This document shows positions 14,287-64,000 of a DNA stretch of 64,000 bases, piece after piece. Under the pieces are notes generated by a model. It had not been told where the DNA came from. It was given only the letters and a program-made list of their open reading frames with translations, and ran no database searches. Each line of letters begins with the position of its first letter. Within the stretch, counting starts at the first letter, position 1. The position numbers were made by a program, and so were the translations under genes. This DNA comes from Amphiscolops sp. MND2022 (lineage: Eukaryota), in contig OZ076409.1 in NCBI GenBank assembly GCA_964187785.1, positions 65,288,001 to 65,352,000 of the forward strand, in the 5' to 3' direction.

Positions 14287-14655
14287 TTTTCCACTTTTCT
14301 CAGCACTGAATGGGAGTTTTTACACGCGGTTTTCACCACCACGCGTTATTTTTATGATAAAAACAGAAAATTAGAGCGCGGAAGCTCCTAGCTAACAAAA
14401 TGACAGAGTGCCCATGGGGTTTTAATTGTGTACTCAGACACTCCTGAAACTGACTAAAAATCAAGGTTTTTCAACTTTTCTCAGCACTGAAAAGGAAATT
14501 TTGCACGCGGTTTTCACCACAATGCGTTATTTTTACTACAAAAACAGAAAATGAGAGCGCGCGGGCTCCCAGGTCTCGAAAACACTGAGTGCCCCAGAGG
14601 TTTTAATGATGCACTCTGGCACTCCTGAAACTGGCCAAAAATCAAGGTTTTTCGA
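14287..14655. repeat. Tandem duplication of about 180 bp in the 5' leader of element A
   Basis: cttttctcagcactgaa...cacgcggttttcaccac...aaaaacagaaaat.agagcgcg...gagtgccc occurs twice, about 180 bp apart. Confidence 0.85.
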
Positions 14656-15734: not shown

Positions 15735-15751
15735 TCCCTCTGTGGTCGCCA
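15735..15751 (-). promoter_or_regulatory. Primer binding site, probably tRNA-Arg
   Basis: Minus strand TGGCGACCACAGAGGGA, 15 nt downstream of the 5' LTR; its complement ...GTGGTCG-CCA resembles the 3' end of eukaryotic tRNA-Arg(TCG). Confidence 0.8.
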
Positions 15752-15766
15752 AAAAATGACGTCTCA

Positions 15767-16539
15767 TAAAACGGCAAGCTGTTATCGGTCGCTTAACACG
15801 TTAACAGAGGTGGAGGAACCTGCAGAAATGGGTGAATCGCTCGGGACAGGCGCCCATCGCCACAGATCCATTTTGCCTCCAGGGGTGAAATACGTCCCGG
15901 GGCCGCGGGTGCTTCGACGAATACTGTCCAACCGGTCCTAGTCTTTGATTGCTAATAGTAACGGGCATCTTTCTGGCTCTCTAAAGATCACCGCTTAACT
16001 AGCATATAAAAACAATGCCAAGAATAAGGTAAATTTCCAGTTCCAGGGTGACATGTGAATAAGATCTAAAATTGGGGAATAAGATCTAAACTAGCGCTAG
16101 CGCTACTGAATACAGCCAAAATCACTGAAAATACATGAAAACAGGCACGAATATGGCAAACCACACAGCTAAAAAGCTGGGGCGCAGGGGCTCCAAGCAC
16201 CAAACAAGGATCTTTAGGCGAAAAGACTCATTTTTACGGTTTCCGCTACATAGGGTAGCATAATGCTGAAAATCGATAAAACCGGTGTTAGCACCTCAAA
16301 AAGAGTCTATTTTCGGATGTTCTTGCCGTCTCTGGCTTCTGTCATGGCGGCGCGCCCGTATTTTTGCTCGTTCTTGCTCTTTGTTGTCGAAGTACCTGCC
16401 AATTTCGTGGAAACAGCGAAAAGAGCAATCACATGCTCAGTGCCACGTCACACATCGGATTAGAATTTTTGACAAAATTCCTGAACATGTCAAAGTTGCA
16501 AAATCGGTTGATATTGCTGTACCAGAGCTTGCCGTTACA
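15767..16539 (-). repeat. 5' LTR of element A
   Basis: Copy of 1006-1778 with about 2 internal substitutions seen; inner end reads TAAAAC instead of TGTAAC. Confidence 0.95.
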
Positions 16540-43532: not shown

Positions 43533-45009
43533 GTACAGTGGAATCCCAGTATTAAGTATCTTCACGGGAGGTATGTTCGAGTTACGTTATACTGAGACCT
43601 ACGCTATAAGGTGATTACATAAGTTTTGTACTGGAGAAACTAAAGAGTAAAAACGAAGTGATCGAGACTGTAACGAAGTGGAAATATTGAAAAAATGTCC
43701 CAACAGATTCAACTGAAGAAACAGTTTCTTGGTGCTTTAAAAGAGTTATTCAGGATCAGAAAATAGGTAATTTATATAGAATCAATTTTTTTGGGATCGA
43801 ATTATACAGGATTCGAAATCGATTCAATAAAAATTAAGTTTCTCGAAATTGATGGCATGACTCGGAGCTCCTCGTTCCGGAGTGCTTTGCAATCCTCCTG
43901 GTCGGCATTCGAAAAAAACCTTACCGCTGGTTAAGTAGTGGCACGTTGCTCCGCTTGGCTTCGATCCTGCGTTTAGGGCCCCATAGGTGTATCATTAAGG
44001 AAGTTTTCACTTCTTTCGATCCTAGATAAAACCAAGTCACAATACGATCCTAAATAATGTTGCAAACTTTTTGACCCTACGTAATTTGACCCTACGACTC
44101 TACACAGCAAGCCCCCTCAAAGGAATACACAATTACAGTATTTTCTTACAGCAAACTGTTTATACAACAATCCATTGCAGGGAGTGATTTAAGAGCAGTG
44201 ATAATTGTCTTAGTTTCTTCTCCGTTGAACAGATGAGAATTTGAATTGCTTTTGAGCGTCAGTCCTTCATGGGGCGAGGATACAACTATACGAAAACATA
44301 ATGCGTAAAAAATAAATTATCTTCAATGTCATCAAAAATTGCCAGACAAATGCAATAAAGCAAATAAATTAACGTCGACTCTTTTCTTTACGATATTGAT
44401 AAAGGTTGAAGATGTTTTCCGCAGAACTACTGTTACTTGTGTTGTGTTTAACACATCTTTTTCTTCAGTTAAATAATATTGAAACATTTATATAAAATTA
44501 TTTCATTGGAGTAAGAACAAAATTGTTCATTTTCCGTAAATCATTTTTCGCATTCTTTCAATTTTCAAGGCACGCTTGAAAAAATTATAGAAGTAAACAA
44601 ATTCACAACTGCGCGTTACTTGAAAGAACAAATTCCACTTCACAAAAGAGACGCTTGACACTTGTGCAAATAATTCTCTTTTATTCTCTTTGAAAAAGAC
44701 AATATGCGACGCCACTTGTGCGAGCAAATATCTCTAAGATAACAAAAGGCGCCACTTGTGCGGCCGGAGCTTCTCAATTTGAGAACAAAAGATTATTCAA
44801 GCGAGACCAAAAGTCCCCACTTGAGAGGACTAATTCCCCTGACATAAACAAAAGTTGCGTCAGCCAACTCGGCTAGCTGAGTTAAATGACTAGCTGATGC
44901 AATCTTTGCCGACTTGTACTCGGCTGTGCCTGGTCCCGAAGTCATTCCCGAGTAAAGACCGAGAATGTGACGTTAATTATTCGTGCCCAATAAAATGCAC
45001 CGATTACTG

Positions 45010-45180
45010 TGATTGGTTGCACGTGCTTTCTGATTTATATAAAAGGGCCAACTTTTCTAAAGACGATCATTCGCTTCTCACAGTTTTTCACCTCCCAAAC
45101 AAAAGCAAATCCGTCACTCTCTTCCTCTCAAAAATAAACAAATCTTCAAAACTCCACTCACTTCACTTTTCAGGTAAGTT
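45010..45180 (+). promoter_or_regulatory. Pol II promoter of element B (reverse CCAAT, TATA) and a 5' splice donor
   Basis: ATTGG at 45012, TATATAAAAG at 45036, TCATTC Inr-like about 30 nt later, CAG|GTAAGT at 45174. Confidence 0.7.
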
Positions 45181-45499
45181 ATTTTCTTTAACTTAGAGAA
45201 TAACAACAAAATTCACAAGTCAGAATTTCTTCTCTTTATTTATTCTTGTCTTCGTGACAACAAAATTGCAGTCATTCGACTGAACAAAAAGTTGACCAAC
45301 AAGGTTCTTCTATGCAATCATAGAGAATTCTATCTTGAGCTAAACGCTCCAAATAATCCAGATTCTCGATTGAGACTTATCTTATCTCTAAAGTACGCTA
45401 TCGCGTCAAGACTTAGCAAATGCTAGATAAAGTTAATTTATATCTTAACCTAAATTAAAATTAAAAACTAAAATGCATGTAATCTCTTAACTTATTTTA

Positions 45500-46245
45500 G
45501 CCGGACCTTAAGTTCGAGCTTTCTGACAATTCTGTACAAAAAAGCAACCTAGCTATACGCTGGCTGAATAAGACCTTTACATTACTTAGACTTGCAAGAC
45601 TTCTTCAATGTCTTGGTGTTAGACAATCTTGTCTCCTATTGACTTAGCCACTGCTAGTCACAACATAAGTTAAACTCTCAAAGCCCTGCACCGAACCTTA
45701 TGTTCGAGCAGCCCTTGGCAAACCTGTCGAAACACAAAACCTAGCTAAACGCTGGTTAATAAGACCTTTACTTGACTTAGACTTACAAGACTTCTTCAAA
45801 GTCTTGACGTTAGACAATCTTGTCTCTTTTTTGACTTAGCAAGCCTGCTAGTCCATTGCAATATGTTAAACTCTTAGAATACTGCAACGAACCTTATGTT
45901 CAAGCAGCTATTGGCAAACCTGTCCAAATACAAAACCTAGCTAAACGCTGGTTAATAAGACCTTTACTTGACTTAGACTTACAAGACTTCTTCAAAGTCT
46001 TGTCGTTAGACAATCTTGTCTCATTTTCGACTTAGCAAACCTGCTAGTCCATTGCATTAGGTTAAACTTTTAGAACACTGCAAAGAACCTTATGTTCAAG
46101 CAGCTATTGGCAACGCTGTCCAAACACAAAACCTAGATAAACGCTGGTTAAGCAGACTTTACTTTACCTAGACTTGCAAGACTTCCTCAAAGACTTGACG
46201 TTAGACAATCTTGTCTTTGACTTAGCTATTGCTGGTCATATGATT
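45500..46245 (+). repeat. Four tandem hairpin-rich repeats of about 196 bp inside the 5' LTR
   Basis: Anchor (a/g)acctt at about 45504, 45694, 45890, 46086. Confidence 0.9.
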
Positions 46246-46833
46246 TAAAACTTAACACTTTAAACTTTTCAGCTTTCTATAAGCTAGAACTTTTGACAAA
46301 CCTGTCATACCGTTGTCAACAGACTTAGCTAATCTCACATTCCTGTTGAGAATACTAAGTCATAAAAAGGTCTGAACAGACCAAAAATTTCAATACTTTT
46401 CGTCCTAACAAATTGTTGGATGTTATAGGACTACCAAATTCCAGTTTTTACAGTATTTAAACAACTTACCTGATTATTGCCACCTTAATAAGAGGTAGCA
46501 TGAGGTATTTATTTTTCGTGCATGTTAAACAATTCAGATATTATTGATTGGATATTTGTGTCAATTTGGATGATTATATTGTTCTGTTTGTATTATATTC
46601 TTGCGTATTGTGAAAAAACGAACATTCTGGAATATAATACTCAAACTAATTCAAATTCTTTTCATAAAATTAAACTCTTCTCTCGAAACAAAGTCCTTCC
46701 TGCGAACTCGGAAGACCTAGAGACAACTTTTGTAAAGGCTTAGGAAGGCATAGTCGCAAGCTAACTCCTAAGCAAAACTGAATAAGAATCGCAGAAAACT
46801 AATTTTCCTAAACCCACACGAACCTTTACAAAC

Positions 46834-46850
46834 TGGTGCAACCAGTGAGG
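46834..46850 (+). promoter_or_regulatory. Primer binding site of element B (tRNA identity not assigned)
   Basis: TTTACA-aac-TGGTGCAACCAGTGAGG just upstream of gag. Confidence 0.7.
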
Positions 46851-46872
46851 CATATACAAGGAAAAGAGAAGA

Positions 46873-48267
46873 ACGGCAGATAATACAGTTTCATTTCCCG
46901 ACCTCGCGTTGGACAAATTCTCAGGAAACGATCCTGAACAAGATGTTGGATCATTTCTCACAACTGTTGAGAACAAAATCAAATTCTCGATGGGTCATGA
47001 ACCCGACAATGATGACGAACGAGCAAGATACTTATTTCGCAAGAAGGCATTTTTTTCATCTCTCATAAAAGGACATGCCGCCGAATGGTACACAGACAAC
47101 ATAGAAGATGGACACGATTGGCAGCATATCAGAACACTTTTTTAAACCCGTTTTTCCGATAAAAGAGATAAATACAGATATAGAATAACTGCAGAAAACA
47201 GTTTCAGAGGAAATGAAGAAATAATAAAGAACTATTTTCACCGAGTGAAACGAGCTATCGATAGAGGGTGGCCGGATGTAGAAAATGCGGACAACGCAGC
47301 CAGAGCTGAACTGATCGCCCAAAGAAGAAAAAAGTATATTGAATTTGCAGTCAGAGGACTAACGCCAAATGAACTCAAGAACAAGGCTCACCAATACCTA
47401 ATTGAACACCCCAACGCAACTTGGGAACAATTTCAAGAACACGTCACTAATAAAGACCTTGTTTTTACTATCAGCTCGCAGTTAGCCCCGAATGCCTCAC
47501 AAAACCAAAAAACATTGATAAATGAACTACGAGAAGACATAAATGCAATGAAGAATATGCTAAAAGAACAACAAGTCATTTCCTTAGCTGTAACTAATCC
47601 TTTACCCTACGGATGCTCATCCTCCCACTGTCATGACTATCACGTCTCTGCAGTAGACGTAAATAACACGTCCCGCCAAAATTTCACACGATTTTGTATA
47701 TATTGCCGAAGGAATGGTCACACACTCCAATATTGCCGAAAAACGATCTATGATGACGAAGCCAAGAGAGCACAATCAAGAGCTAATGAAGAGAAGAAGG
47801 TCACCTTCACTAACGACTACAACAAACTGAAGGTACACAAATTTGGATCACAACAAAATTATCAGCCCTCACCAATACCGAACGTCACTAATATTCAGAG
47901 GAATAACCAACAGTCGACCCAAAACTTCAACAGAGGCAGACCTAACGAGGGAAACAATCGAAATGATAACTGGAACCGAAATAATCCTCAGCAGCCGAAC
48001 AACTTCAACAACTTCAATAGCAACAGCAATCACTTTTCAGGTAGTAGACCGACTCCTAGTAATACTAATTTGCGAAACAATACCCCCTATACTGGAAATA
48101 GGCCAAATAGCCCGTGTAACTTCAGTGCACGACCACAAAACACAAATTCTGAGTACAATAGGATTTTCCCAATCAACAATAACAGTTTCCCAAACTCCGT
48201 ACAGTTCATCGACGAAGAAGGACAGGACAGAGTTTGTACAATCTCGTTCAATCCTTTAAACTGCTAA
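46873..48267 (+). pseudogene. gag: Gag of element B with CCHC zinc knuckle and N/Q-rich tail
   Basis: LDKFSGNDPEQDVGSFL, GHAAEWY, CIYCRRNGHTLQYC; start codon appears mutated (ACG), frameshift at about 47140. Confidence 0.88.
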
Positions 48268-48346
48268 AGTCTCCGCGACCTGACGAAGAAAGTAACCTCA
48301 AATCACGATTTCACCTAAATCTCTTCTTTTTTTTCCACCGGAGACT
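48255..48346 (+). promoter_or_regulatory. -1 programmed ribosomal frameshift signal (gag/pol)
   Basis: T TTA AAC in the gag frame at 48255-48261, 6-nt spacer, stem AGTCTCCG (48268-48275) / CGGAGACT (48339-48346). Confidence 0.8.
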
Positions 48347-49139
48347 CCAAAAAAGATAGTGGGTTGGAAATAGAATTCATGTTAGACACAGGAGCAGCCT
48401 GCTTGATTATTAATTATAGAGCTTTTGAGGAAATTGCACAATTTGGACAACTCATCACGGTAGTCAGAAGCAAGCAACTGACTAAAACCTTTACTGGTGA
48501 AGTTATACCGATGCTCGGATCAAGAACAAGCACATTTAGTTTCGACTCGGATGGACTCCATCCCGTAGAACTGAAGTTTTGGATAAAAGAAGCGAAGACA
48601 CCCAATTTGCTGGGAATAGATTTCTGCCGTGAACTTGTTTCTAAATTCCATTTTGATTTGCCTGCAATCGAATTCAAAGAAAGTCCTAACACAATTTGCT
48701 ACGGTAACCTTTGTGCTACCAAACTTTTCCCGTACGTTTCAAAAGTCGAAACAATACGAACAGATAACCCAATTTGTATCGATACCAAAACCACCCGTCC
48801 ACACAAAAACTCTCGCGAGAACAACAGACATTTTGCACCCGGAACATCATTTACACCCCACAAAAATGAAGTCAAAACAGAGGACTTACCTTTGTGAATG
48901 TTTTATGTACAAAATCGGAATCCCACCTGCAAATTTTGATTGAAAATATTCGAAATCACTAAATAACCCTTAATAGAGGGATAATTGGTCATGCTATCAT
49001 AAATCTACAGGAAAGGGAACAACCGAAGTTCCAGATAAAGGATTGTGTCACGATCGTCAAGACATTTTTGAAGGAGAACCCAGACTACAACTATTGTTTC
49101 TTACTGCACTCAACAGTTCCTTTCGAGCACGAAGGAGAT

Positions 49140-49500
49140 CAACAAGTTTTTCTAAGCCACGGCTCCGGCGAGACCCTTCGAGCATCAAATGCAAATCTAG
49201 CTTTTTGCGTCTCAGCAGATGGAAAAATGACAACCACGTTTGCAAGAAAGTTGTGCGAACAGAAGAAGGATTCCCAGAAGTCCGTAAACCAATCGAAACC
49301 TTTCATTGGATCGGTTTTACCCTTTTGGGATAACGAAGCCCACCGCTTTTACTATGGACTAGTTGCAAAGAAAAGATGCTACGAAAAAATTAAACCCGGG
49401 GGTTTTCGTAGCTGCATCGAAAATCTGTTTGGACACTCACAGCCTAACAATATACCTGCAATTTCAATACCCAAAATTGAAGACGGCCTAGACAACCATA
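49140..49500 (+). CDS. TARG1/OARD1(Poa1p)-like macrodomain within pol
   Basis: LAFCVSADGKM...RFYYGLVAKKR...K...FRSCIENL...NNIPAISIPKIEDGLD matches the TARG1-family pattern LAHCISxD..M...IYYLITK...MPRIGCGLD. Confidence 0.8.
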
Positions 49501-52500
49501 ATAATAAACTATAATAATAAACTAAACCATAATATTAAACTATAATAATAATAATAAGGATGCTAAATCTTGTCAGCCACCCTGTACAGAACAATTTGTC
49601 GAACTTAGAACAAAAGAAGACAACGACGCATTGACAGAATACTACTTCTAATATCAGCCTGAAGAAATCAAGGCATATGTAAAAAAAATTCGATTTCCGA
49701 TATACTGACCTCCTAGATGAAGAATTGGTTGTCTTGACAGACATGCTTATTGACGCAGCGGACGTGTATTCACAACACAAATTTGACGTGGGAAAAGTAC
49801 GTCAAAAATTTCACGTAACCCGAAAGTTCGGAACTCAAAAAACAACGACCAAGCAAAGCACCCCTCCACTTGAAAGACAAACTTGAGAAACTACTTGGAC
49901 AACTCCAAGAAGCCGATATCATTAGCGAAATGGGAGACAATGACGAATTGGGTTCCCTTTTGGTCAATCCGATCATTCTAATGCCCAAACCAGACTACGT
50001 AAAGTTAGTAATCGACGCCCGCTACTTAAACTCTATAACGGATCTAACGAATTATTCGTGGCCATTAGAGCCCATACAGACGATCATGACTCGAATTAAC
50101 GGAAAATACTTCACAGTCAGCAACTTATCTTGCGCATATCACCAAGTTCCATTGAGCGACGAGACCCAAAAGCTCACTAGTTTCATCATCGGCGGAAAAC
50201 AGTATACGTATGTACGCGGTTTTTACGGACTCAGTGGACTTCCAAACTTTTTTTAGCCGTCTCATGGCTATACATTTTGAGTCCCTTATCAAACGAAAAC
50301 AAGCAATCACCTACCTTGATGACAGCCTAATGCAGGCTCAGACTAAACAAAAAATGTTCACAGTAATTCACGAGTACCATCAACTCCTAAGGAAAGCTGG
50401 ACTTGAAGCTGCACCTGAGAAGACAAACTTCTTCATCAGAAAAGTCCAATTCCTGGGTCATGTTATTTCTGAAAAAGGAATACAGCCCTTAGCAAAACGA
50501 GTACAGGATCTCAAAAACTTGAAATCACCCGAAAGTAAAAGGGAGGTGATGAAAGTACTTGGCTGTCTTGGGTTTTATAGTTGCTATATCAAAAACTTAC
50601 ATGTGGACAGTCAACCCTTCTACGATTTGATCAAAGCTACAACACCTTTCAAGTGGACGAAAGAACATGAAGAACTTTTCACCGATATAAAAAATCGAAT
50701 ATGTGAGGACACTATCCTTGCCGTTCCATCAACTGAGTACCCCTTCCACATACACGTCGATTCTTCAAATGTTGGTACCGGTTGTATTTTAGTACAACAA
50801 TTTCCAGAAGGGAAAAGGATAGTTTCTTTCAAGTCCCTTCACCGTGAATTGTGTGGTATAGTATCAGCACTTCAAACATACGAACACTACATTATTGGAT
50901 CTCCATTCCCAATATACCTCTACTGCGATCACAAACCCATCCTAAACCTTTGGGGAAGGAAAAGACAGCTCTCCCACCGCTTTTTCAAATACCAGGTGAT
51001 CATCACCAAAATCCAAAATCTCAAAATTATCTGGACTAAAGGATCCAATCTCGCATTTCCAGATATACTTAGTCGGAACATCACATTGGAGGAAACCAAA
51101 AACTTGCAAAAACTACACAAAGAAGTACCGCTAGATCTCAGTTTCTATGATGAATTTGGATCGAAAGTACATTATACAGTCAGTACATTATGACGACGGT
51201 CAGTGTGGAAGCAATGATTTTTTCCCTATCCTTTGCCGAAAGGGCAAAGATCAAAGACTACTCCATCTCAAGAATGACAGAGAGGAACATGAAGTAGAGC
51301 ACTACGAGAACTAACAAACAGTAATGGCGACTCACCAAGACATCGCCGATTGTTTCAAATTGGGAAAGTCAATCAACCAATACAAAAACCTCTGTCTTCC
51401 CTCATACAAAATACAGTGCGAACCCGAATATAGTAGAATAGACGAAATTGAAACAAATTCTAGTGATGACGAAGAGGATGTCGCCGAACTCCACCTTTCT
51501 AGCGTAGATCACGAGTTCTATCGTGATAAATCAACGGCAAAAAAAGTCCCACACGTTGACACTAAAGACCTCCTACAAAAACTGATTGTTCTAAAATCGC
51601 TGATCTAGATATCACGACTCTAGTTGCAGAGCAAATCAACGACCCCGTATTACAAGTAGTACGATCCTGGGTTAGAAACAATAACAAGCCAACCACCAAA
51701 AAACCTGAAATACAACAATCGAAGACCTTACTATCGTATTTCAACAATTTTAACCAACTTTTTCCCGATAAAGAAAGCAATCTACTCTGCTATAACGAAC
51801 CTGTTCATGGAACGGACATATTCGAAATGAAAATTTGTTTCTCCTTATCATTATTCCTGCCCCTCTTTAACATAGCTCACGCTCACACTCACAGCGGTCA
51901 CCCAGGCATATTCAAAACATTCGAAAACATCAGACAGAATTTCTTTTGGCCTGGACGATAAAAGTGGATAGTATCCCTCGTAGAAGATTGTTTACAGTGC
52001 CAGACTAATAAGTCTAAACGATACGATTTACAAGAAGCACATCTTGAACAGTGGGGTGAATTCGAAACAACCCCTTTCAAAACGATTCATATCGACCATA
52101 GAGGTCCCATCAGACCAAGCAGTAATTTGAAGACATATTGTCTAGTTGTAGTAGATGCATTTTCAACATTTCTTGGAGTCTACCCTGTTCGAGATACAGG
52201 AGCTCAGATTACAATCAATGCACTCGAAAAATGGATTAAATCCTACGACATCCCTCAAAAGATTGTCCACGATAATGGCTCAGCTTTCATCAGCCGTGAT
52301 TTTGTAAATTGGACAAAAGAATTTGGGATAACGCTGGCACCACGCACTGCATACTCGCCTTGGACGAACGGCAAAGTCGAAATCCAAAACGAACATCTCA
52401 TGACATACTGGACAAGTTTCACCAACGAGTCAGGAAACAATTGGTCGTCATTTGCGTCCAAATTTGCCTTTGCCCATAATACAAGCGTAAATTATACAAC

Positions 52501-54125
52501 GGTATGACTCCTTACGAAATTGTTTTTGGCGTTAAACCACAAATACCTATGACGCTGAGACTCGCACTTTTTCGCGACAAAAACAAACAATGCAAATCTG
52601 AGTTTTGTGCGGATCTACAACCTCACACCCATAGTGAAAATAACCTCTGAAACAATTCCCTTGATCGACTTCTTAAACCACAGTTATCTTCCGAGCTACT
52701 CACAAGAGAAAACGAATTCAAGTCAATCAACTCATCCACCCTCAAAAGAGAAATCACATCAAAGGCTCATGAGTATCGGAACCGTTTCAAACTGGGAAAA
52801 CCGCTCGAAGTCGGTCAAAAGGTTCTATTAGAAAATGACAAACCCGACCTATTCAAATACCAGAAATTGAAACATTTACGAGTTGGACCCTTCACGGTGA
52901 TAAAACAGAAAGCTATTACCACATACGAGATAAAAGAAGACGAAAACCCCGAGAACGTTAAAGTCACTCATCGAAACCAGTTACTAGAATATTTCCTCAA
53001 AGAGGAGACCTTGCCCCCATTGCTATCAAATTACGCTCCCAGAGAACAAGACGATAATTTTTACAAGCACTTGATCCAGAGTCAAATTGACAAACACAAT
53101 TCAGGACAATCTGAGCATAAACTAGATTTTATGCCACTCATCATAACCCCCCTTTCAGGGCCCAACAACAACAACACTACCAAAGGTTCTGAGTTTTCCC
53201 CCAGCACCGATTCTGGATTCCGTTCTCCGAAAACCCCACAATTTCACACCCCGATACCATCTACGTCTAACAACACCGTTCCAAGGGCACGTTCCCATCA
53301 CAGCTGTAGAACAAATCCACTTCCACAAACTGCATTGCCACTCGCTTTCTCTTCCAACACTCCTACCCAACTACCCAAGAGAACACCGGTTCTCCCGTCC
53401 GTACACCCTATCCACACAATGTCTCCCCCCGATGAAACTTCCCCAAAAACAGGAAAGTTATCTAACTTCAAGAAGAAAGTAACTACACGGTTTTCCGAAA
53501 AACCCAAAATTCCTAAATACGAACGAAGCACCCCCGGTAGCTCTCTCAGGGATATAGAACGAAAAGGCTATAAAGATTAGAAAGTAAATGATAACTCTAG
53601 CATTCACCACAACAACAAAATTTTAGCTGCGCTAAAATCCTGAACTATCTTTTTATTTCACAAAAAAATCTATGTAAATCGGACACTACACATCACTCTC
53701 TGTGTCATGAGACCCAGGGACAGAATAACTTATCGAAGAAAAACCCATGAAAGCGTGCATAATTGTGCCAACCCCTCTTTCCTGAATCTCGAACTCTTCG
53801 ATTGTCTTCAGGTCCTGAATGACATTGGACAATTTCTCAGCCTTACTGATAACTGCCATCAACGTACATGTTCGTTGACCACAACTTTTTGGATCGGGAA
53901 TTTCGATCTTTTCAAAAAAAACTTCAATTTTTTTATCACCTAGTCACAAAAAAAGTGGCTGCCCAGTGACCTCTTGGATACAACAACCACAAATTTATTA
54001 CCAGACAATTAGCAATAGCCTACGCTTACTGGTATACCCTTTTAGAACCCCTTACTCAATCAAAAGATTTTTGCCAAAAATCTTTACTTGGATCAATAAT
54101 TCCTGTATCAGAGAAAATTCGTGGC

Positions 54126-54325
54126 ATGGCGGTTCACCTTAAATGGTTGAACTGCATGGAATAGATACCACTGTGACTGTTGACGGTTTTCTTCAACAAG
54201 TCTTCCCAAGAGGCAAAACCACAAACAAAATTGTGCTATGGCGGTTCACCGTAAATGGTCGAACTGTCTGGAATAGGTAGCACTGTGACTGTTGATTTTT
54301 TAATCAACAAGCCTCCATAGAGGCG
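54126..54325 (+). repeat. Duplicated structured motif of about 90 nt (period 112 bp)
   Basis: atggcggttcacc.taaatggt.gaactg...ggaatag.ta.cactgtgactgttga...tcaacaag.ct.c..agaggc occurs twice. Confidence 0.8.
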
Positions 54326-56055
54326 ACTGCTCGAAACTTTTGGCCAACTTCCCTCATCTTTGGCTAAATGTTTGGATAATTATTATCAAAACGTTCTCTT
54401 ATTTCTCAACTTACAACGTAAAGTTGAAACAAAGTTATTACAAAAAATAATATTGAAATAAGAGACATCACAAACACAATTATTTACAAAAAATACAAAG
54501 ATTTACAAAATATCTTCCCTCTCAGCGGGGATAATAGCTGCCCCATTAGGAGGCGGATTGGGGTGCCCAGAACACAGACACACCATATATCTCCCCAACT
54601 CCGCTAGGTCCTGCAGCACTTGAAAAAACTGGCTCCGATCCAGCCGTCGAGCTATGTCTGGTCGATCTTGTGGAGCAGTCATCTCTCACCCCCGTACAAT
54701 AGCTTTGAGTTTAAAAACCCATGCGTCCTTGGTTCCGGACTGTACCGTCTCCCTCAACTAAAACAAACTGCAATCAATACACAAAACACAAAATCTCACA
54801 AACGTTTCCGTCTCTGCTCATCTTATCGCACTTAGAAACTACAGTTACAGAACTTACAGAATCGATACTAAGGACGATACTTTCCGTTTCCTTCTTACTC
54901 TTCGTGCTAAGAACTATATTAAAACCTCTTCCTTACAATGTTTCGGCATCACAAGTTAAACCACTCAACAACTTACGTGGTCGCCTAACGTCAACCTCAC
55001 TGCTCTCCAGAGTGGTTCTGGGCGTCGCAGAACTTCACCCACCGCAGTTGTCCCCGCCATCATTGGAAGCTCCTGATCGGTCACCAATGATCGCATATCA
55101 GCGAAGAGATCTGGTGCGAGATAAGCGTCATCAGCGGTAGAGAATGGCAAACGGTTCATCATGTAAAAGAAAAATCTAAATCACAACAACTAACTTGCAA
55201 TTTCAAATTTCATTTTCACCACCCCCCTTATGCCAATAAAAAATTTCCCTTCATTTTACACTCTGTTGTTCAACACTGTTTTTGTTTTCCCTCCAAGATT
55301 TACCACCATATGCTTCAACAATTTTTCTACTTCTTTTTCGGCGGTCGAGCGTGTCATATACACGATGACAAAAACTCAAAAAAACGAATATTGAAAACGA
55401 ACTTACTTGTGAATATGAAGAAATCAGACTAACATCCGAGAACGTATTCAACACAAACAAAACTTAAGCCACCATTTCAAAAACACACATGGCGTCCATA
55501 GAACTGAACCATTACAAAAGCACACTGTGAACAAACAATTTTTCAAACCACTCAAAACCACAAGGCAGCCAAAAGAACTAAACCATAACAAAAACGCATT
55601 CACTACAAGGCAAACTTCAAAACACAACTTCAAAAACACACATGGCACCCACAGTTCTCCAACAACAACAGCGCGTTTTTAATAAAAGGAACAGATGAAA
55701 ACCAGTGATGCAAGTCAAAGAAAACAGAAAAGAGGAGTCAACAACTAAAAGAAATTAACAAAAGAAGTCACTGCATGTTTTAACAAAAGCATGTAGAAAA
55801 CAAAAGAACACAAAATTTATATTACAAAGACTACAAAAAGAAGCAGATAAGTAGGAGAACAAAAAAATTAAGACAAAGCTCTGCTAAAGGAGAACCTTGT
55901 GAAAAGAACAAAAACACAATCGTATAAAATTTTGTCTCTTGAAAAGTCAAGCTCTTGCAACCGTAAAATTTGTTTAAATTTTACAAAATATGTCAAGTAG
56001 CATTTTCGAACATTGTATTTCATTTTAGTCAACTTTCAGCCAAATTCAACCAAAG

Positions 56056-56483
56056 ATGAAGCCCGTCTTATCCCAATCATCGTTATCAATAAAATCAATT
56101 TCAACTGCACATGGAATGTGATGCCCGAAGTCGAAGAGACTTCCATGATTGTACAAGAGTTTAACTGGAGCTGGCATCCAGCGGCAGATGTGGAAATTCG
56201 ATTCCACAATTACAGGTCAAAGCGAACGTACCATAAATGGTTAAAACCGGGATCATTTCTCTACATGTCTCTCACAGCAGCTCTAGTCACTTACAAAAGG
56301 GAACATGAACCGCAACTCTCTAAACAGGATATTGATGCCTTGAGCGCCATAACGGACCAAACGGACGCTACCTGCCGAAGTTCGAACTATAAAGACATGT
56401 ATATAGATATATTAGAAACCCTGATGCTCGGGCAAAAGATGGACAATTTTTTACATGTAAATAAAAGTCTTCTTCTTACATAA
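56056..56483 (+). pseudogene. Accessory ORF A (consensus about 144 aa, unknown function), unit 1
   Basis: ATG 17 nt after TTTCAG; a 7-nt deletion near the start relative to unit 2; rest open. Confidence 0.6.
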
Positions 56484-56554
56484 TTCATTTCTCTTCTCTT
56501 CGTTGTCATTTTAACTTAAACTGATAGCTCATCTGTAATCATTCATTTCAGCTT

Positions 56555-57054
56555 AGCACGGTAACGATCATAGTATCAATCTCTGCCGTGGTTGAAAAAC
56601 TTTTCAGCACGGTAACTATCAGAGTATCAATCTCTGCCGTGGGTAAATAACTTTTCAAAAAATCGATCACAGTAACGATCCTAGTATCAATCTCTGCAGT
56701 GGGTAAATAACTTTTCAAAGTCGAGCACGGTAACGATCACAGTATCAATCTCTGCCGTGGGTAAATAACTTTTCAAAGAATCAAGCACGGTAACGATTAT
56801 AGTGTCAATCTCTGCCGTGGGTAAACAAATTTTTCAAAAGCAAGCACGGTAACGATCCTAGTTATCAATCTCTGCCGTGGGTAATAAATTTGTTTCACTA
56901 AGCACGGTAACGATCTTAGTTATCAATCTCTGCCGTGGGTAAAAAAGCATTTCAGCACGGTAATGATCACAGTATCAATCTCTGCCGTGGGTAAAAAACT
57001 TTTTAGCACGGTAACGATTATAGTATCAATCTCTGCCGTGGGTAAAAAACTTTT
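56555..57054 (+). repeat. Array of 9 hairpin repeats (about 40-bp core plus 10-20-bp A/T linker), unit 1
   Basis: AGCACGGTAACGATNNNAGTATCAATCTCTGCCGTGGGTAAA x9, period 51-60 bp. Confidence 0.92.
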
Positions 57055-57073
57055 GATTATTTCAGTTCATCGT

Positions 57074-57292
57074 ATGACTTACATCAAAATTGAAAACAAA
57101 TTCTACCGGATCTATCAGACTGAGCTGGACCAAGATAGAATTTATATCTATCTAAAACACGACATCACTTCAAAAAAAGACATTGTGTTTGAATATCGAC
57201 AATCAGTCTACTGGGACTATTTTCTACACCTTATGACATTTGTGGGAGACATACCTACAGATTTGTTTAGAGGAGAAAGCAACCGCCTCTAA
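57074..57292 (+). CDS. Accessory ORF B (72 aa, unknown), unit 1
   Basis: ATG 9 nt after TTTCAG; intact in both units; MTYIKIENKFYRIYQTELDQDRIYIYLKH... Confidence 0.6.
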   Translation: MTYIKIENKFYRIYQTELDQDRIYIYLKHDITSKKDIVFEYRQSVYWDYFLHLMTFVGDIPTDLFRGESNRL

Positions 57293-57710
57293 TGAACCCA
57301 AAGTCTGTTCTCAAAAAAGACTCCCGCAAAAGAGCAAAACCGAGAATTACACAAAACTATCATTTTCCTACTATCTACTGGGACACCCTTTGGGAGAAAA
57401 AATACGAAGAACGTAGTTTCAACTGCCCATGGATAATTTTCGTTAGTGAAAACAACACAAAATTTTTGATTACCTATATTCGGTGAACTTGGACTTACGG
57501 AAGCAAGATTTGCATTCATTTCGAACGTTATGACCTGCCCAATAAAAAATACCAGAGGCAATTCTACAAAGACACTTTCCTATATGCATCACTAGCCGCT
57601 TCCGTCATTTTGTAAGAACACAAACCCGAAAGACACATCACAAAATTTTATTTAGATGTGCTGGGAGAATTAACCAGTGTTATGGACATCGAATGCGTCA
57701 CCTCCCCTAA
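57292..57710 (+). pseudogene. Accessory ORF C (consensus 138 aa, basic, Cys/His/Trp-rich), unit 1
   Basis: Starts in a TAATG overlap with ORF B; TGA at 57484 and a 2-nt insertion, both absent from unit 2. Confidence 0.55.
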
Positions 57711-59857
57711 ATAAAACCAGTTGTACACGGATCTTATCCAATTTTATGACTTGTAAGTTTCATAAACTAAAATCTTGTATTTTGTGTTGAATAAACTCTT
57801 ATAATCTCATTTCACTATCTTTTATTTCAAATTCAAAACCCATAATTTCACTTCTGTTAACAGAGTGTGGTTTCAGTGCTTATAATAACGGCTATCAACT
57901 GAGCCAGATACTGAAACTCTCAATCTATAGAATCGTGCACCAAATATAAAACTAAAACAGTGGTCACAACAAGCTACCAAACATCTATTTACTTTCGCTT
58001 TAGTTGAAGTCATTAGACAACATTTACCTCATTTCAGCCCCTGGAAGCATTTCCACGCCTGATTCAATTTTGATTCGCATCTGGTGGTCAACTAGACTCC
58101 GTCGACTCCTGGTTAGCAAGCTACCAAATTTATATCCAAATTTTGATTTGGTTGAAGACAGTAGACAAAACTTGTCCACTTTCAGTCATCCCGAAAAGCA
58201 GTCTTCATCAGTCAAATCAACCTTGATTGCAACTGGATTGTCAAATTCGACTCCACCAACTCTCGGTTAGCAAGCTACCGTTTAAATTTTCCCCTTCCTA
58301 AACTAATTTTAACATTTTGCCCTTCACAAAAAAGAAGTTTTGGCAATACCTAAGGTTCCTCCCATTAGATCCAAAATGTGCAGTGAATTCTTTATTATAC
58401 TCATTACGTGCTACACCCTCATCAATGGCCTTTCCAAACCCCAATCTGGACGACATTGCATAGAGACTCAGCAAGTCACATTATGAATGTGGAGAGATGA
58501 CTGAAAACAAATTATAGAACACAGACACACCATATATCTCCCCAACTCCGCTAAGTCGTGTAGCACTTGAAAAAACTGTCTCCGATCCAGTCGTCGAGCT
58601 ATGTCCGGTCGATCTTGTGAAGCAGTCATCTCCCACCCCCGTACAATAGCTTTGAGTTTAAAAACCCATACGTCCTTGGTTCCGGACTGTAGCGTCTCCC
58701 TCCACTAAAACAAACTGCAATCAATACACAAAACACAAACTCTCACAAACGTTTCCGTCTCTGCTTACCTTATCGCACTTAGAAACTACAGTTACAGAAC
58801 TTACAGAATCGATACTAAGGACGATATTTTCCGTTTCCTTCTTACTCTTCGTTCTAAGAACTATATTAAAACCTCTTCCTTACATTGTTTCGGCATCACA
58901 AGTTACACCACTCAACAACTTACGTGGTCGCCTAACGCCAATCTCACTGCTCTGCGGAGTGGTTCTGGGCGTAGTAGAACATCACCCACCGCAGTTGTCC
59001 CCGCCATCATTGGAAGCTCCTGATCGGTCACCAATGATCGCATATCAGCGAAGAGATCTGGTGCCAGATAAGCGTCATCAGCGGTAGAGAATGGCAAACG
59101 GTTCATCATGTAAGGGAAAAGTCTAAATCACAACAACTAACTTGCAATCTCAAATTTCTTTTTCACCACCCCCCTTATGCCAAAAAAAATTTCCCTTCAT
59201 TTTACACTCTGTTGTTCAACACTGTTTTTGTTTTCCCTCCAAGATTTACCACCATATGCTTCAACAATTTTTCTACTTCTTTTTCGGCGGTCGAGCGTGT
59301 CATATACACGATGACAAAAACTCAAGAAAAACGAATATTGAAAACGAACTTACTTGTGAATATGAAGAAATCAGACTAACATCCGAGAACGTATTCAACA
59401 CAAACAAAACTTAAGCCACCATTTCAAAAACACACATGGCGTCCATAGAACTGAACCATTACAAAAGCACACTGTGAACAAACAATTTTTCAAACCACTC
59501 AAAACCACAAGGCAGCCAAAAGAACTAAACCATAACAAAAACGCATTCACTACAAGGCAAACTTCAAAACACAACTTCAAAAACACACATGGCACCCACA
59601 GTTCTCCAACAACAACAGCGCGTTTTTAATAAAAGGAACAGATGAAAACCAGTGATGCAAGTCAAAGAAAACAGAAAAGAGGAGTCAACAACTAAAAGAA
59701 ATTAACAAAAGAAGTCACTGCATGTTTTAACAAAAGCATGTAGAAAACAAAAGAACTCAAAATTTATATTACAAAGACTACAAAAAGAAGCAAAGAAGTA
59801 TGAGAACAAAAAACTAAGACAAAGCTCTGCTAAAGGAGAACCTTGTGAAAAGAACAA

Positions 59858-60343
59858 CAAGACGAGAACGTCTAAAGTCGGCGCCATATCTAAGGCTCAA
59901 AAAGCGTAAAACACTTTTTTTGAAAAAAAATTGAAATTTTTGAAAAAAATTTTTCTTTCAAAAGAAGTCGCATAGTGCCGAAAAATGTAAAAGGGGGGAC
60001 CCTTCTTTATTTATTAACAAACATTCCGTTGCAAAATATCAAAAAACTCAAAGGGGGGACCCTTTGGGGACATTAAAAAATTTTCGAAAAAAAGTCGCAC
60101 AGTTCCAAAAAAAATCCAAAGGGGGGACCCTTTGGGCACGCCCGGTTTTGTATGTTTCCTTGAAAAAGTAAAAAATGAAAGGGGGGACCCTTTGGAGTAA
60201 AGTTTGCCTTGGGCGGACTTGGCCAGGTGCTCTGCGCAGAATTGTAAAAAGTGGACCGATCAGAGTGAGGATTGTAGTCTGAAGAAAAAAAAAGGTCACT
60301 GCTATAGTCGGACATATTTCCTTAAAAGGAAAACGCGCCGACT
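59858..60343 (-). mobile_element. Complete HINE inserted in cassette unit 2
   Basis: Absent from unit 1 (gaaaagaac|aaaaacac); minus strand TT|AGTCGGCGC...GCGCCGACT-TT-AGACG-TTCT-CGTCT-TG|TT. Confidence 0.88.
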
Positions 60344-60489
60344 AAAAACACAATAGTATAAAATTTTGTCTCTTGAAAAGTCAAGCTCTTGCAACCGTAA
60401 AATTTGTTTAAATTTTACAAACTATGTCAAGTAGCATTTTCGAACATTGTATTTCAATTTAGTCAACTTTCAGCCAAATTCAACCAAAG

Positions 60490-60923
60490 ATGAAGCCCGT
60501 CTTTGATGATATTCCAATCATCGTTATCAATAAAATCAATTTCAACTGCACTGGAATGTGATGCCCGAAGTCGAAGAGACTTCCATGATTGTACAAGAGT
60601 TTAACTGGAGCTGGCATCCAGCGGCAGTTGTGGAAATTCGATTCCACAATTACAGGTCAAAGCAAACGTACCATAAATGGTTAAAACCGGGATCATTTCT
60701 CTACATGTCTCTCACAGCAGCTCTAGTCACTTACAAAAGGAAACCTGAACCGCAAATTTCTAAACAGGACATTGATGCCTTGAGCGCCATTACGGACCAA
60801 ATGGACGCTACCTGCCGAAATTCGAACTATAAAGACATGTATATAGATATATTAGAAACCCTGAAGCTCTGGCAAGAGATGGACGATTTTTTACTTGTAA
60901 ATAAAAGTCTTCTTCTTACCTAA
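60490..60923 (+). pseudogene. Accessory ORF A, unit 2
   Basis: Intact start MKPVFDDIPII, 1-nt deletion at about 60551 where unit 1 is intact. Confidence 0.6.
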
Positions 60924-60994
60924 TTCTTTTCTCTTCTCTTTGTTGTCACTTCAACTTAAACTGATAGCTCATCTGTAATCATTCATTTCAGCTT

Positions 60995-61498
60995 AGCACG
61001 GTAACGATCATAGTATCAATCTCTGCAGTGGGTGAAAAACTTTTCAGCAAGGTAACGATCAAAGTATCAATCTCTGCCGTGGGTAAATAACTTTTCAAAA
61101 AATCGATCACGGTAACGATCCTAGTATCAATCTCTGCAGTGGGTAAATAACATGTCAAAGTCGAGCACGGTAACGATCACAGTATCAATCTCTGCCGTGG
61201 GTAAATAACTTTTCAAAGAATCAAGCACGGTAACGATCATAGTGTCAATCTCTGCCGTGGGTAAACAACTTTTCAAAAGCAAGCACGGTAACGATCCTAG
61301 TTATCAATCTCTGCCGTGGGTAAAAAAAAATTTGTTTCACTAAGCACGGTAACGATCTTAGTTATCAATCTCGGCCGTGGGTAAAAAAACTTTTCAGCAC
61401 GGTAACGATCACAGTATCAATCTCTGCCGTGGGTGAAAAAACTTTTTAGCACGGTAACGATCATAGTATCAATCTCTGCCGTGGGTAAAAATCTTTTG
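60995..61498 (+). repeat. Array of 9 hairpin repeats, unit 2
   Basis: Same units in the same order as 56555-57054. Confidence 0.92.
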
Positions 61499-61516
61499 AT
61501 TGTTTCAGTTCATCGA

Positions 61517-61735
61517 ATGACTTACATCAAAATTGAAAACGAATTCTACCGGATCTATAAGACTGAGCTGGACCAAGATAGAATTTATATCTATCTAAAA
61601 CACGACATCACTTCAAAAAAAAACATTGTTTTTGCAGATCGACAATCAGTCTACTGGGACAATTTTCTACACCTTATGACATTTGTGGGAGACATACCTA
61701 CAGATTTGTTTAGAGGAGAAAGCAACCGCCTCTAA
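61517..61735 (+). CDS. Accessory ORF B (72 aa), unit 2
   Basis: Intact copy. Confidence 0.6.
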   Translation: MTYIKIENEFYRIYKTELDQDRIYIYLKHDITSKKNIVFADRQSVYWDNFLHLMTFVGDIPTDLFRGESNRL

Positions 61736-62151
61736 TGAACCCACAGTCTGTTCTCAAAAAAGACTCCCGCAAAAGAGCAGAACCGAGAATTACACAAAAC
61801 TATCATTTTCCTACTATCTACTGGGACACCCTTTGAGAGAAGAAATACGAAGAACGTAGTTTCAACTGCCCCTGGATAATTTTCGTTAGTGAAAACAACG
61901 CAAAATTTTTGATTACCTTTATTCGGTGGACTTGGACTTACGGATGCAAGATTTGCATTCATTTCGAACGCTACGACCTGCCCAATAAAAAGTACGAGGC
62001 AAATCTACAAAGACACTTTCCTATATGCATCACTAGCCGCTTCCGTCATTTTGTAAGAACACAAACCCGAAAGACACATCACAAAATTTTATTTAGATGT
62101 GCTGGGAGAATTAACCAGTGTTATGGACATCGAATGCGTCACCTCCCCTAA
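61735..62151 (+). pseudogene. Accessory ORF C, unit 2
   Basis: 417 nt in one frame with a single TGA at about 61834 where unit 1 has TGG. Confidence 0.55.
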
Positions 62152-62978
62152 GTATAACCAGTTGTACACGGATCTTATCCAATTTTATGATTTGTAAGTT
62201 TCATAAACTAAAATCTTGTATTTTGTGTTGAATAAACTCTTATAATCTCATTTCACTATCTTTTATTTCAAATTCAAAACCCATCATTTCACTTCTGTTA
62301 ACAGAGTGTACTTTCAGTGCTTATAATAACGACTATCAACTGCGCCAGATACTGAAACTCTCAATTTATAGAATCGTGCACCAATCTTAAAACTAAAGCA
62401 GTGGTCACTGTGACTACACCCTCTTTTGGTTAGCAAGCTACCAAACATCTATTTACTTTTGCTTTAGTTGAAGTCATTAGACAACATTTACCTCATTTCA
62501 GCCCCTGGAAGCATATTCACGCCTGATTCAATTTTGATTCGCATCTGGTCGTCAACTAGACTCCGTCGACTCCTGGTTAGCAAGCTACCAAATTTATATC
62601 CAAATTTTGATTTGAATGAAGACAGTAGACAAAACTTGTCCACTTTCAGTCATCCCAAAAAGCAGTCTTCATCAATCAAATCAACCTTGATTGCAACTGG
62701 ATTGTCAAAATCGACTCCACCAACTCTCGGTTAGCAAGCTACCGTTTAAATTTTCCCCTTCCTAAACTAATTTTAACATTTTGCCCTTCACAAAAAAGAA
62801 AGTTTGGCAATACCTAAGGTTCCTCTCATTAGATCCAAATTGTGCACTGAATTCTTTTTAATACTCATTACGTGCTACACCCTCATCAATGGCCTTCCGA
62901 ACCCCAATCTGGACGACATTGCACAGAGACTCAGCAAGTCACATTATGATTGTGGAGAGATGACTGAAAACAAATTAT

Positions 62979-64000
62979 AGAACACAGACACACCATTCAT
63001 CCCCCCAACTCCGCTAGGTCCTGCAGCACTTGAAAAAACTGGCTCCGATCCAGCCGTCGAGCTATGTCCATTCGATCTTGTGGAGCAGTCATCTCTCACC
63101 ACCGTACAATAGCTTTGAGTTTAAAAACTCATACGTCCTTGGTTCCGGGCTATAACGTCTCCCTCCACTAAAACAAACTGCAATCAATACACAAAACACA
63201 AAATCTCACAAACGTTTCCCTCTCCGCTTACCTTATCGCACTTAGAAACTACAGTTACAGAACTTACAGAATCGATACTAAGGACGATACTTTCCGTTTC
63301 CTTCTTACTCTTCGTGCTAAGAACTATATTAAAACCTCTCCCTTACAATGTTTCGGCATCACAAGTTACACCACTCAACAACTTACGTGGCCGCCTAACG
63401 CCAACCTCACTGCTCTCCGGAGTGGTTCTGGGCGTCGCAGAACTTCACCCACCGCAGTTGTCCCCACCATCATTGGAAACTCCTGATCGGTCACCAATGA
63501 TCGCAAATCAGCGAAGAGATCTGGTGCCACATAAGCGTCATCAGCGGTAGAGAATGGCAAACGGTTCATCATGTAAAGGAAAAGTCTAAATCACAACAAC
63601 TAACTTGCAATCTCAAATTTCATTTTCACCACCCCCCTTATGCCAATAAAAAATTTCCCTTCATTTTTCACTCTGTTGTTCAACACTGTTTTTGTTTTCC
63701 CTCCAAGATTTACCACCATATGCTTCAAAATTTTTCTACTCCTTTTTCGGCGGTCGAGCGTGTCATATACACGATTACAAAAACTCAAGAAAAACGAATA
63801 TTGAAAACGAACTTACTTGTGAATGTGAAGAAATCAGACTAACATCCGAGAACGTATTCAACACAAACAAAACTTAAGCCACCACTTCAAAAACACACAT
63901 GGCGTCCAAAGAACTGAACCATTACAAAAGCACACTGTGAACAAACAATTTCTCAAACCACTCAAAACCACATGGCAGCCAAAAGAACTGAACCATAACA
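62979..64000 (+). repeat. Tandem cassette, unit 3 (cut by the window end)
   Basis: Colinear with the first 1 kb of units 1 and 2. Confidence 0.95.

Follow-up and report, generated by a model that had tools for sequence, protein, structure and literature searches.

A 19.5-kb env-bearing Ty3/Gypsy element of Amphiscolops with a tripled accessory region and a candidate RNA hairpin array

An LTR element with a tripled cassette

We analyzed a 64,000-nucleotide stretch of contig OZ076409.1 from Amphiscolops sp. MND2022 (the window), which holds an LTR element that runs past its end. The features are, in window coordinates:

44440..46830, +, 5' LTR, 2.4 kb, TG...CA, holding a 196-bp tandem repeat, a TATA-like box near 45039 and a splice-donor-like site near 45175
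46849..48267, +, gag, broken in this copy, preceded at about 46833 by a TGG-starting primer-binding site
48319..53580, +, pol, several broken frames: protease, macrodomain, reverse transcriptase (RT), RNase H, integrase
54118..54335, +, post-pol repeats, two of 113 bp, structured RNA-like
54503..55162, −, gene X, antisense: exon 1 about 55162-54977, exon 2 54757-54503
54569..58515, +, repeat unit 1, 3947 bp: 3' part of X, spacer, A, array, B, C, pre-env repeats, env 5' end
56056..56483, +, ORF A, broken here
56555..57054, +, hairpin array, 9 units of 51-61 nt
57074..57292, +, ORF B, acceptor-like TTTCAG 8 nt upstream
57292..57756, +, ORF C, 3 stops here, AATAAA at about 57790
57880..58300, +, pre-env conserved repeats, 15-nt motif at 58111 and 58265
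58346..58515, +, env 5' end, 56 codons, broken
58516..62978, +, repeat unit 2, with a 480-bp insertion; array 60995-61497, ORF B 61517-61735
59864..60343, no strand, unrelated dispersed repeat, 480 bp, inserted in unit 2 only
from 62979, +, repeat unit 3, past the window end (64000) by about 2910 bases
6633-8817 bases beyond the window, 3' LTR of this copy, target-site duplication CTTG (4 bp)

Extension of the window located the 3' LTR, which pairs with the 5' LTR and completes a 4-bp target-site duplication; the 5' LTR starts at 44440 and not, as first proposed, at about 44.7 kb. Its splice-donor-like site was seen in this copy and in one of two other copies scanned. Protease, RT, RNase H and integrase follow one another as in Ty3/Gypsy elements, and assignment to that class rests here on this order and on weak matches to SH3_Tf2-1 and Integrase_p58_C, the tree having no named references. 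The C-terminal part of the integrase is SH3-like, and pol carries a TARG1/OARD1-like macrodomain at about 49190-49500 (E 2e-4 here, E 3e-9 in another copy). Paired LTRs, target-site duplication and primer-binding site are all present, and the locus very probably holds a 19.5-kb env-bearing Ty3/Gypsy element with an accessory region that is tripled in the window.

The repetition 3' of the integrase is real and head-to-tail, beginning at 54569 with neither LTR nor PPT between pol and the repeat, as the original prediction had it, but there are three units of 3.95 kb, not 2.3. Also borne out were the nine hairpins per unit (in units 1 and 2), the 72-aa ORF B, its TAATG link to C and the AATAAA after C. 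In unbroken natural copies ORF A has 134-136 aa instead of about 144 and ORF C 154 instead of 138, and the two-exon gene X had been overlooked. The junctions of units 2 and 3 are the same. The cassette had been taken to stand in place of env, whose 5' end (58346-58515) in fact lies within each unit, the unit's 3' end being env codon 56; beyond the window, unit 3 is followed by the remainder of env, ORF E, ORF F and the 3' LTR. A fourth, partial ORF A was observed inside this env remainder.

Nor is tandem amplification the element's design, as had been supposed. All 29 other copies fetched, chosen as best matches, carry a single cassette followed by env, E and F, and the family-1 layout is LTR-gag-pol-X(antisense, spliced)-A-hairpin array-B-TAATG-C-env-E-F(TRAF MATH)-LTR over about 19.5 kb (19.4-19.6 kb). 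Among 85 family-1 ORF-B matches, more than one ORF B occurs at only 2 of 80 places, and parts of the cassette are duplicated in a few old copies. The window's copy is itself old. Since its units differ from each other by 0.028-0.050 and its LTRs by 0.055-0.074, the tripling seems younger than the insertion, although LTRs may evolve faster than internal DNA, and it is likely a rearrangement of the decaying copy. Judged by LTR identity, family 1 as such inserted recently: the pairs are 99.8-100% identical, with 4-bp target-site duplications, in four of four dated copies.

Accessory genes, env and sister families

The intron of X (GTAAGT...TTTTAG) measures 210-219 nt in other copies; exon 2 has an in-frame stop in unit 1 and, in units 2 and 3, is truncated at 54569. 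ORF A has an acceptor-like TTTCAG 16 nt upstream and an AATAAA at about 56460. A and C are paralogues of one family, for which no known fold or named homologue was found. ORF B is modelled as four strands and a helix (pLDDT 86). The B and A/C models both start with four strands and a helix; a profile comparison of B with A/C as possible paralogues was negative. Foldseek against viral models gave no match at E 0.001 or better, an ESM Atlas search with B and C gave no usable match, and PDB-wide alignment of the models reached at best Z 5.2 for B, to EF-P domain I and OB folds, and Z 4.3 for C; these levels are those of common arrangements, and no clear RNA-binding match emerged. Homologues number 3 for B, 7 for C and 51 for the A/C profile, all unnamed proteins from one source type. 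The charge of B and C is balanced and not notably basic. Both B and the A/C family may represent new folds.

The complete env of other copies has 712 aa, 16 cysteines and one C-terminal hydrophobic segment, and lacks an R-x-K/R-R site. It matches PF24664 Monjiviricetes_fusion (E 7e-38) and is, by this profile match, a class III (gB-type) env located after pol. Neither env nor the hairpin motif had a match in the viral contigs searched. ORF F combines a coiled coil with a TRAF MATH domain (Pfam E 5e-22; PDB TRAF1 E 2e-13).

Between subfamilies 1a and 1b, dN/dS, computed on unbroken ORFs only, is 0.04 for X exon 1, 0.17 for B, 0.13 for C, 0.02 for env, 0.13 for E and 0.05 for F, values for B and C that are not near 1; for ORF A, dN is 0.16 and dS is saturated. 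By this measure purifying selection acts on the six accessory ORFs in the comparison of subfamilies, A with saturated dS. The proposal of a complex-retrovirus-like accessory module has thus held up, on purifying selection, on a cassette found in 29 of 29 other copies fetched rather than missing elsewhere, and on compensatory hairpin changes in a sister family.

Three related families, each multi-copy, were distinguished; they have conserved RNA modules and six or seven accessory genes, and in two sister families the same gene set is in shuffled order. Families 1 and 2 differ at synonymous sites by 0.64-0.73 in B/B' and E/E' (saturated), and the hairpin motif occurs 2-5 times in 20 of 20 family-2 loci. 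Family 3 has A/C-like and X-like genes and the array motif is absent from it, so protein and motif are not strictly tied. Its B-like ORF matches B at E 0.084 only, its antisense ORF gave no alignment with X exon 1, and just before env it carries an unrelated pseudoknot-like module 1-4 times (pairing judged by eye). A covariance-model search for the motif was negative both for 7 metagenome loci and for 20 stretches of families 3 and 4. E-like genes are weak at loci L063 and L067 (tblastn E 0.008-0.04; missing from the HMM list) and firmer at L062 (E 6e-6). The element is best read as belonging to a complex, accessory-gene-rich errantivirus clade.

The hairpin array and its possible role

Arrays in other copies hold 5-14 units. 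The hairpin has an outer stem of 7-8 bp with an invariant U-G pair, an asymmetric internal loop, a 3-bp inner stem and a conserved A-rich tail. Two stem pairs covary among 37 distinct units (C-G in 21 and G-C in 16; U-A in 25 and C-G in 11; 0 of 500 shuffles), although both may reflect just two historical events. The stem is invariant within family 1, and compensatory changes also occur within one array. Family-2 modules (93-149 nt) have two further covarying stems, and their helices stay paired under several different sequences. A lone hairpin folds no better than shuffles (−10 kcal/mol, z −0.84); support for the hairpin rests on covariation, not on single-unit folding energy. We regard it as a putative conserved base-paired RNA element, and its loop and tail letters, unpaired yet conserved, fit recognition by a protein. 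Rfam searches of the window region and a family-2 region returned nothing credible. The two subfamilies share about 93% of the post-pol repeat sequence (140/148 and 131/141 columns) at a divergence that nearly saturates coding third positions, and these repeats fold with z −1.9 and −4.1; the pre-env repeats fold with z +0.19, and their 15-nt motif has three copies in unit 2.

We also considered whether slippage produced the array as a satellite, with the cassette as inert cargo, or whether the cassette is an amplified module replacing env. The range of unit number (5-14) and the duplicated cassette parts of a few old copies would fit this reading, but purifying selection, a motif kept across families and env in 29 of 29 copies make it very improbable. 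Of 884 genome-wide motif matches, the first 100 form small clusters, most at known element places; the reversed motif gave 0.

The array could act as DNA: clustered sites for a host transcription factor or an element-encoded anti-silencing protein would make it an enhancer or promoter, internal to the element, that serves B-C or env. Its tail may resemble a forkhead site and is TATA-box-like in family 2. Internal env promoters do exist in Oikopleura Tor elements (PMC4402516). Compensatory changes within one array, family-2 helices that stay paired despite differing sequences and the invariant U-G pair nevertheless argue that this is improbable. Somewhat more so is the idea that each unit is a small non-coding RNA, H/ACA-like or of another kind, that is released to stabilise the transcript or divert host factors. 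The H/ACA hinge is ANANNA, which the single-stranded tail, mostly AAANAA with a variable fourth letter, would fit, and family-2 modules contain another long hairpin with ACA, ATA or GCA after it. Set against this, a covarying stem contains the ACA-like triplet, a second hairpin is lacking in family 1, Rfam gave no match and there is no pocket target in host U2 or the element. Mimicry of U2 was not significant (25-229 of 300 shuffles equally good).

The signals around the genes bear on the two remaining readings. AATAAA or ATTAAA follows A in 26/26 and C in 31/35 cases, and env and E in 0/28 each (background 513/4972). Acceptor-like sites precede A (29/29), B (31/32) and F (26/26; background 1737/9102); at a distance of up to 45 nt there is none for env in family 1 (0/19, 0/16) or for family-2 B and G (0/21, 0/17). 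TAATG is kept at 30/30 family-1 and 9/20 listed family-2 B-C junctions. Separate mRNAs for A, B-C and env/E/F would arise by splicing from the LTR leader and internal polyadenylation, and C would be translated from the B-C mRNA by TAATG reinitiation. Because the array lies past A's poly(A) signal but ahead of B's acceptor, it would survive chiefly in RNA that is read through and left unspliced. Our main reading, to which we give a probability of roughly 55%, is that the array is a multivalent protein-binding tag licensing the unspliced genome RNA for nuclear export, in the manner of an RRE or CTE, on an env-bearing element tripled here. That it acts at the RNA level as a protein-binding array is probable; export or packaging as its specific job we propose tentatively. 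The protein it binds might be the element's own, either E or one of the A/B/C group, which tends to occur along with such arrays, or else an export factor of the host, and F and the macrodomain might blunt host TRAF and ADP-ribose signalling.

The other reading places the array in 3'-end processing, where it would suppress cleavage at the internal poly(A) site or block a 5'-3' exonuclease, so that downstream genes survive operon-like (xrRNA-like or trans-splicing-like). The first hairpin lies 103-111 nt past A's stop in 26/26 family-1 cases and 87-100 nt past G's stop in 12/14 family-2 cases, G and A both having poly(A) signals. This fixed spacing fits such a role in processing at least as well as it fits an export tag, but could be passive inheritance. 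Each of the three internal poly(A) signals of family 1 (pol, A, C) precedes a repeated conserved non-coding module, family 3 has its pseudoknot-like module just before env, and xrRNAs upstream of genes are known from plant viruses (PMC6299227). On the other hand, the family-1 unit is a weak simple hairpin, no covarying pseudoknot was found in the family-1/2 motif, 5-14 units are more than a block should require, and family-3 C-like ORFs are not followed by AATAAA (0/6). We consider this role unlikely, and prefer the export tag. A U1A-type poly(A) inhibition element is also unlikely, the array loop differing from the loop of host U1 stem-loop II.

Comparison with known systems

Env-bearing Gypsy elements outside insects have been catalogued only recently, as simple gag-pol-env units. 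The 'ancient errantiviruses' of HSV/gB type, described by Chary and Hayashi (PMC13524379), have a Ty3/Gypsy gag-pol followed by a chuvirus/gB-like fusion glycoprotein; the element described here shares their gag-pol-then-gB-type env, LTRs, primer-binding site and many near-identical copies. It differs in that pol and env are about 5 kb apart, a distance filled by four genes and three RNA modules, and in having two genes after env. Their screen took in regions of at most 10 kb and allowed no more than 1 kb between pol and env (3-5 kb in manual extensions), size limits that would likely miss this clade, and the words 'Accessory' and 'TRAF' occur 0 times in the paper's text and seven supplements. 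We found no description of the clade in the literature covered, which lay mostly outside subscription papers and bioRxiv supplements.

Burro of planarians (PMC6431247) is a large Gypsy-like element with env homology and a MATH_TRAF_C domain, which in one species forms a separate accessory ORF. Env and a MATH_TRAF_C domain recur here; Burro, however, exceeds 30 kb and encodes a polyprotein of about 4,900 aa with BIR, BCL2, Smc and ankyrin domains, whereas the present element has 19.5 kb, RNA arrays and separate genes of small size, as well as one that is antisense and spliced. In bdelloid LTR elements with extra ORF3s (PMC5408684) and in Oikopleura Tor elements (PMC4402516), an additional ORF or env is expressed by splicing or from an internal promoter. 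They too are invertebrate and Gypsy-like with extra ORFs, typically one of known type (GDSL, DEDDy, env), in contrast to six here and an expanded orphan paralogue family. The UAAUG stop-start coupling of SART1, influenza B and CHV1 (PMC2699510) uses the same pentamer as the B-C junction, a candidate for such coupling.

The complexity of the element is of a level usually associated with retroviruses such as HIV. It is possible, if doubtful as a whole, that an invertebrate Ty3/Gypsy provirus clade independently reached complex-retrovirus organisation, combining its own RNA-tag/protein pair for genome-RNA control, operon-like blocks of accessory genes that internal poly(A) sites divide behind structured RNA arrays, an antisense regulator with an intron, a paralogue family of new fold that grows and is reordered through tandem duplication, and immune antagonists of TRAF and TARG1-like type acquired by capture. 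The capture of TRAF and macrodomain sequences points to the pathways with which hosts restrict elements of this kind. In Cer1/CERV of C. elegans, Rev/RRE and the MPMV CTE (PMC10309623), unspliced RNA is exported via an own protein or a structured RNA. The present element would be alike in being an LTR element whose presumed spliced mRNAs require export of unspliced RNA; it differs in that no accessory protein has a CERV- or Rev-like match in the databases (Pfam) and its RNA has no Rfam match. If the array does control the genome RNA, it would be a new class of structured RNA and an independent solution to the Rev/RRE problem.

The accessory cassette and its amplification in one copy

Self-comparison of the window revealed a head-to-tail repeat beginning at 54569, in agreement with the original prediction, and this resolved into three units once neighbouring DNA was added:

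54569-58515, repeat unit 1
58516-62978, repeat unit 2, containing a 480-bp insertion
62979 to 2910 bases past the window end, repeat unit 3

The predicted hairpins, ORF B, TAATG and AATAAA were all present. Beyond unit 3, a further 3.7 kb leads to the 3' LTR, which the prediction had proposed to seek by extension; it matches 44440-46830 and is accompanied by a 4-bp TSD. The two internal unit junctions are identical, with microhomology of at most 1 base. The element had also been read as lacking env behind pol, which proved incorrect: env follows the cassette (antisense gene X, A, the hairpin array, B and C) and was overlooked because each unit begins within X and stops just 56 codons into env. 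Divergence among the window units (0.028-0.050, nine comparisons) is lower than that of the LTRs (K2P 0.055 and 0.074), so the tripling probably arose after the insertion and belongs to one broken copy. The tandem amplification is incidental to the element. A partial fourth ORF A with its upstream sequence is inserted within env of the window copy (L001:3385-3783, in the DNA directly past the window's 3' end), at a distance of 0.044-0.047 from the other three A copies, and duplicated cassette parts are also found in other old copies (L043, L045 and L088-L089).

A DNA search of the species' own genome (1.07 Gb) for the window element's family (family 1) yielded 229 candidates; 40 of them were scored and 29 of these fetched besides the window. 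The cassette, whose absence from other copies would have refuted the accessory-module reading, was found once in each of the 29 copies (best 40 of 229 scored), arranged as X (antisense)-A-array-B-C-env-E-F. Of the 150 ORF-B matches scored, 85 were at least 61% identical, spread over 80 places, and several B copies occurred at two of these 80. All four copies dated were 19.4-19.6 kb in size with LTRs 99.8-100% identical. One copy (L007-L008; LTR distance 0.014) has lost gag and most of pol while retaining both LTRs and the whole accessory-env region, and pol matches are also missing from a family-2 locus (L059); these are possibly non-autonomous forms. The LTR contains a 196-bp tandem repeat (window 45546-46216), and repeats of 86 bp and 47-49 bp lie at or near the LTRs of families 2 and 3, respectively. 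A separate element in the window (1009-16540) is flanked by 771-bp direct repeats, 99.7% identical, and includes a 181-bp double repeat at 14285-14665.

Accessory genes in family 1 and its relatives

Pairwise Nei-Gojobori comparisons between subfamilies 1a and 1b, restricted to unbroken natural ORFs, gave dN/dS values of 0.04 for X exon 1, 0.17 for B, 0.13 for C, 0.02 for env, 0.13 for E and 0.05 for F; for A, dN was 0.16 and synonymous sites were saturated. Family-2 genes ranged from 0.11 to 0.35. An X intron running from a GTAAGT donor to a TTTTAG acceptor, with 210-219 nt between the two sites, was present in 18 of 30 sequences scanned, and the 84-codon exon 2 was open in 16 of those 18; the profile of this exon matches a family-3 antisense ORF that has no intron (best E 8e-5; pairwise E 3e-4). 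The 712-aa Env protein gives a PF24664 match (E 7e-38) and carries a single hydrophobic segment, near its C-terminal end; a search of 50%-identity representatives found 637 relatives at E 1e-10. F combines a coiled coil with a TRAF MATH domain. A and C are paralogous to each other (about 29%) and share a core to which C', G and the family-3 ORFs can also be aligned. The B model (pLDDT 86) has four strands and one helix, and the C model (pLDDT 76) has four strands, three helices and a disordered stretch over its first 35 residues; no known fold stood out for either in structure comparisons. Inside pol, between protease and RT, lies a TARG1/OARD1-like macrodomain (window 48963-49514; PDB match E 2e-4 in the window copy and E 3e-9 in another).

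Family 2 comprises 20 loci chosen from distant B matches, with integrase 77-79% identical and the order B'-C'a-C'b-G-array-env-E-F, one C' being absent in some loci; several loci among L041-L060 carry a 124-bp double repeat between pol and B'. Ten loci were chosen from env matches, seven forming family 3 and three family 4. Family 3 (integrase 62%) encodes an A-like ORF, an antisense X-like ORF, a B-like ORF, TAATG, two C-like ORFs, an RNA module, env, E and TRAF. No cassette is present in family 4 or in L063, a metagenome element of 13 kb; in these, env lies 0.1-0.7 kb from pol. In a midpoint-rooted integrase tree of 13 rows, from which the window integrase and three other inputs dropped out for want of a long segment, the branch that splits families 1-3 from family 4 and L063 had support of 99/98, and that uniting families 1 and 2 had 96/96. 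Order varies by family (A-array-B-C versus B-C-C-G-array), the pattern that duplication followed by loss would produce. The family-3 RNA module differs from the hairpin motif, being about 154 bp, with pseudoknot-like pairing, in 1-4 copies directly 5' of env:

L074:6093-6500, family-3 RNA module, also in five other family-3 loci

At the start of the family-3 TRAF-like protein (L074:9340-9999), a PAM2-like motif that falls short of the Pfam cut-off (E 0.036) hints at contact with poly(A)-binding protein.

The hairpin array and its possible role

Family-1 copies contain 5-14 hairpin units, and variation among 299 such units sits mostly in the loop. Each of the 20 family-2 loci also carries this motif, in 2-5 copies between G and env. 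An exact pattern of the motif had 884 genome matches and its reversed control none. In 40 hand-picked units (11 from family 1 and 29 from family 2, 37 distinct, long-loop units omitted), 97% of the cells are paired and double-sided changes affect two pairs, exceeding every one of 500 shuffles and every slid control; relatedness inflates this signal, which may stem from just two events. Behind each family-2 hairpin lies a second stem, whose pairing is maintained under three common sequences, and then a third, the centre of which was fixed by the search pattern used. A single unit was not unusually stable on folding, Rfam gave no match to the array, and the hairpin covariance model found no motif in families 3 and 4 or in metagenome loci.

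Signals read from sequence place the array between predicted transcripts. Poly(A) hexamers lie downstream of A in 26 of 26 cases and of C in 31 of 35 (background 513/4972 windows); those after pol (22/24) mostly overlap the stop and are hence weak, and none was found after env or E (0/28 each). Acceptor-like sites lie upstream of A (29/29), B (31/32), F (26/26) and E (9/25), none was found within 45 nt of env, and about 135 nt past the TATA box of the LTR there is a donor-like site. Full-length RNA would have to traverse several splice sites and two or more internal poly(A) signals. The first hairpin begins 103-111 nt after the A stop (mostly 87-100 nt after that of G). Lying past the end of the predicted A mRNA and before the start of the spliced B mRNA, the array would mark read-through RNA, and its many weak copies with conserved unpaired letters are more in keeping with a multivalent site for protein binding than with a lone nuclease block. 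Together these points favour an RRE/CTE-like tag for export or packaging, to which we assign a probability of roughly 0.4; the main rival reading, that the array acts in 3'-end processing, is about half as likely. Judging from their families, the pol macrodomain and TRAF-C-like F would act on host defence.

Comparison with known elements

Several components have precedents: gB-type env in Ty3/Gypsy elements (PMC13524379), MATH domains in Burro (PMC6431247), extra ORFs in rotifer elements (PMC5408684), internal env promoters (PMC4402516), a Rev-like protein in Cer1 (PMC10309623), UAAUG coupling (PMC2699510) and xrRNAs upstream of genes (PMC6299227). None of the papers listed by a weak literature search on macrodomains in gypsy elements contained the word. 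No element with the same gene set or RNA motif was listed in literature searches, although subscription papers, repeat libraries or preprint supplements could contain one. Set against these systems, the window element is a new, complex variant among env-bearing Gypsy elements.
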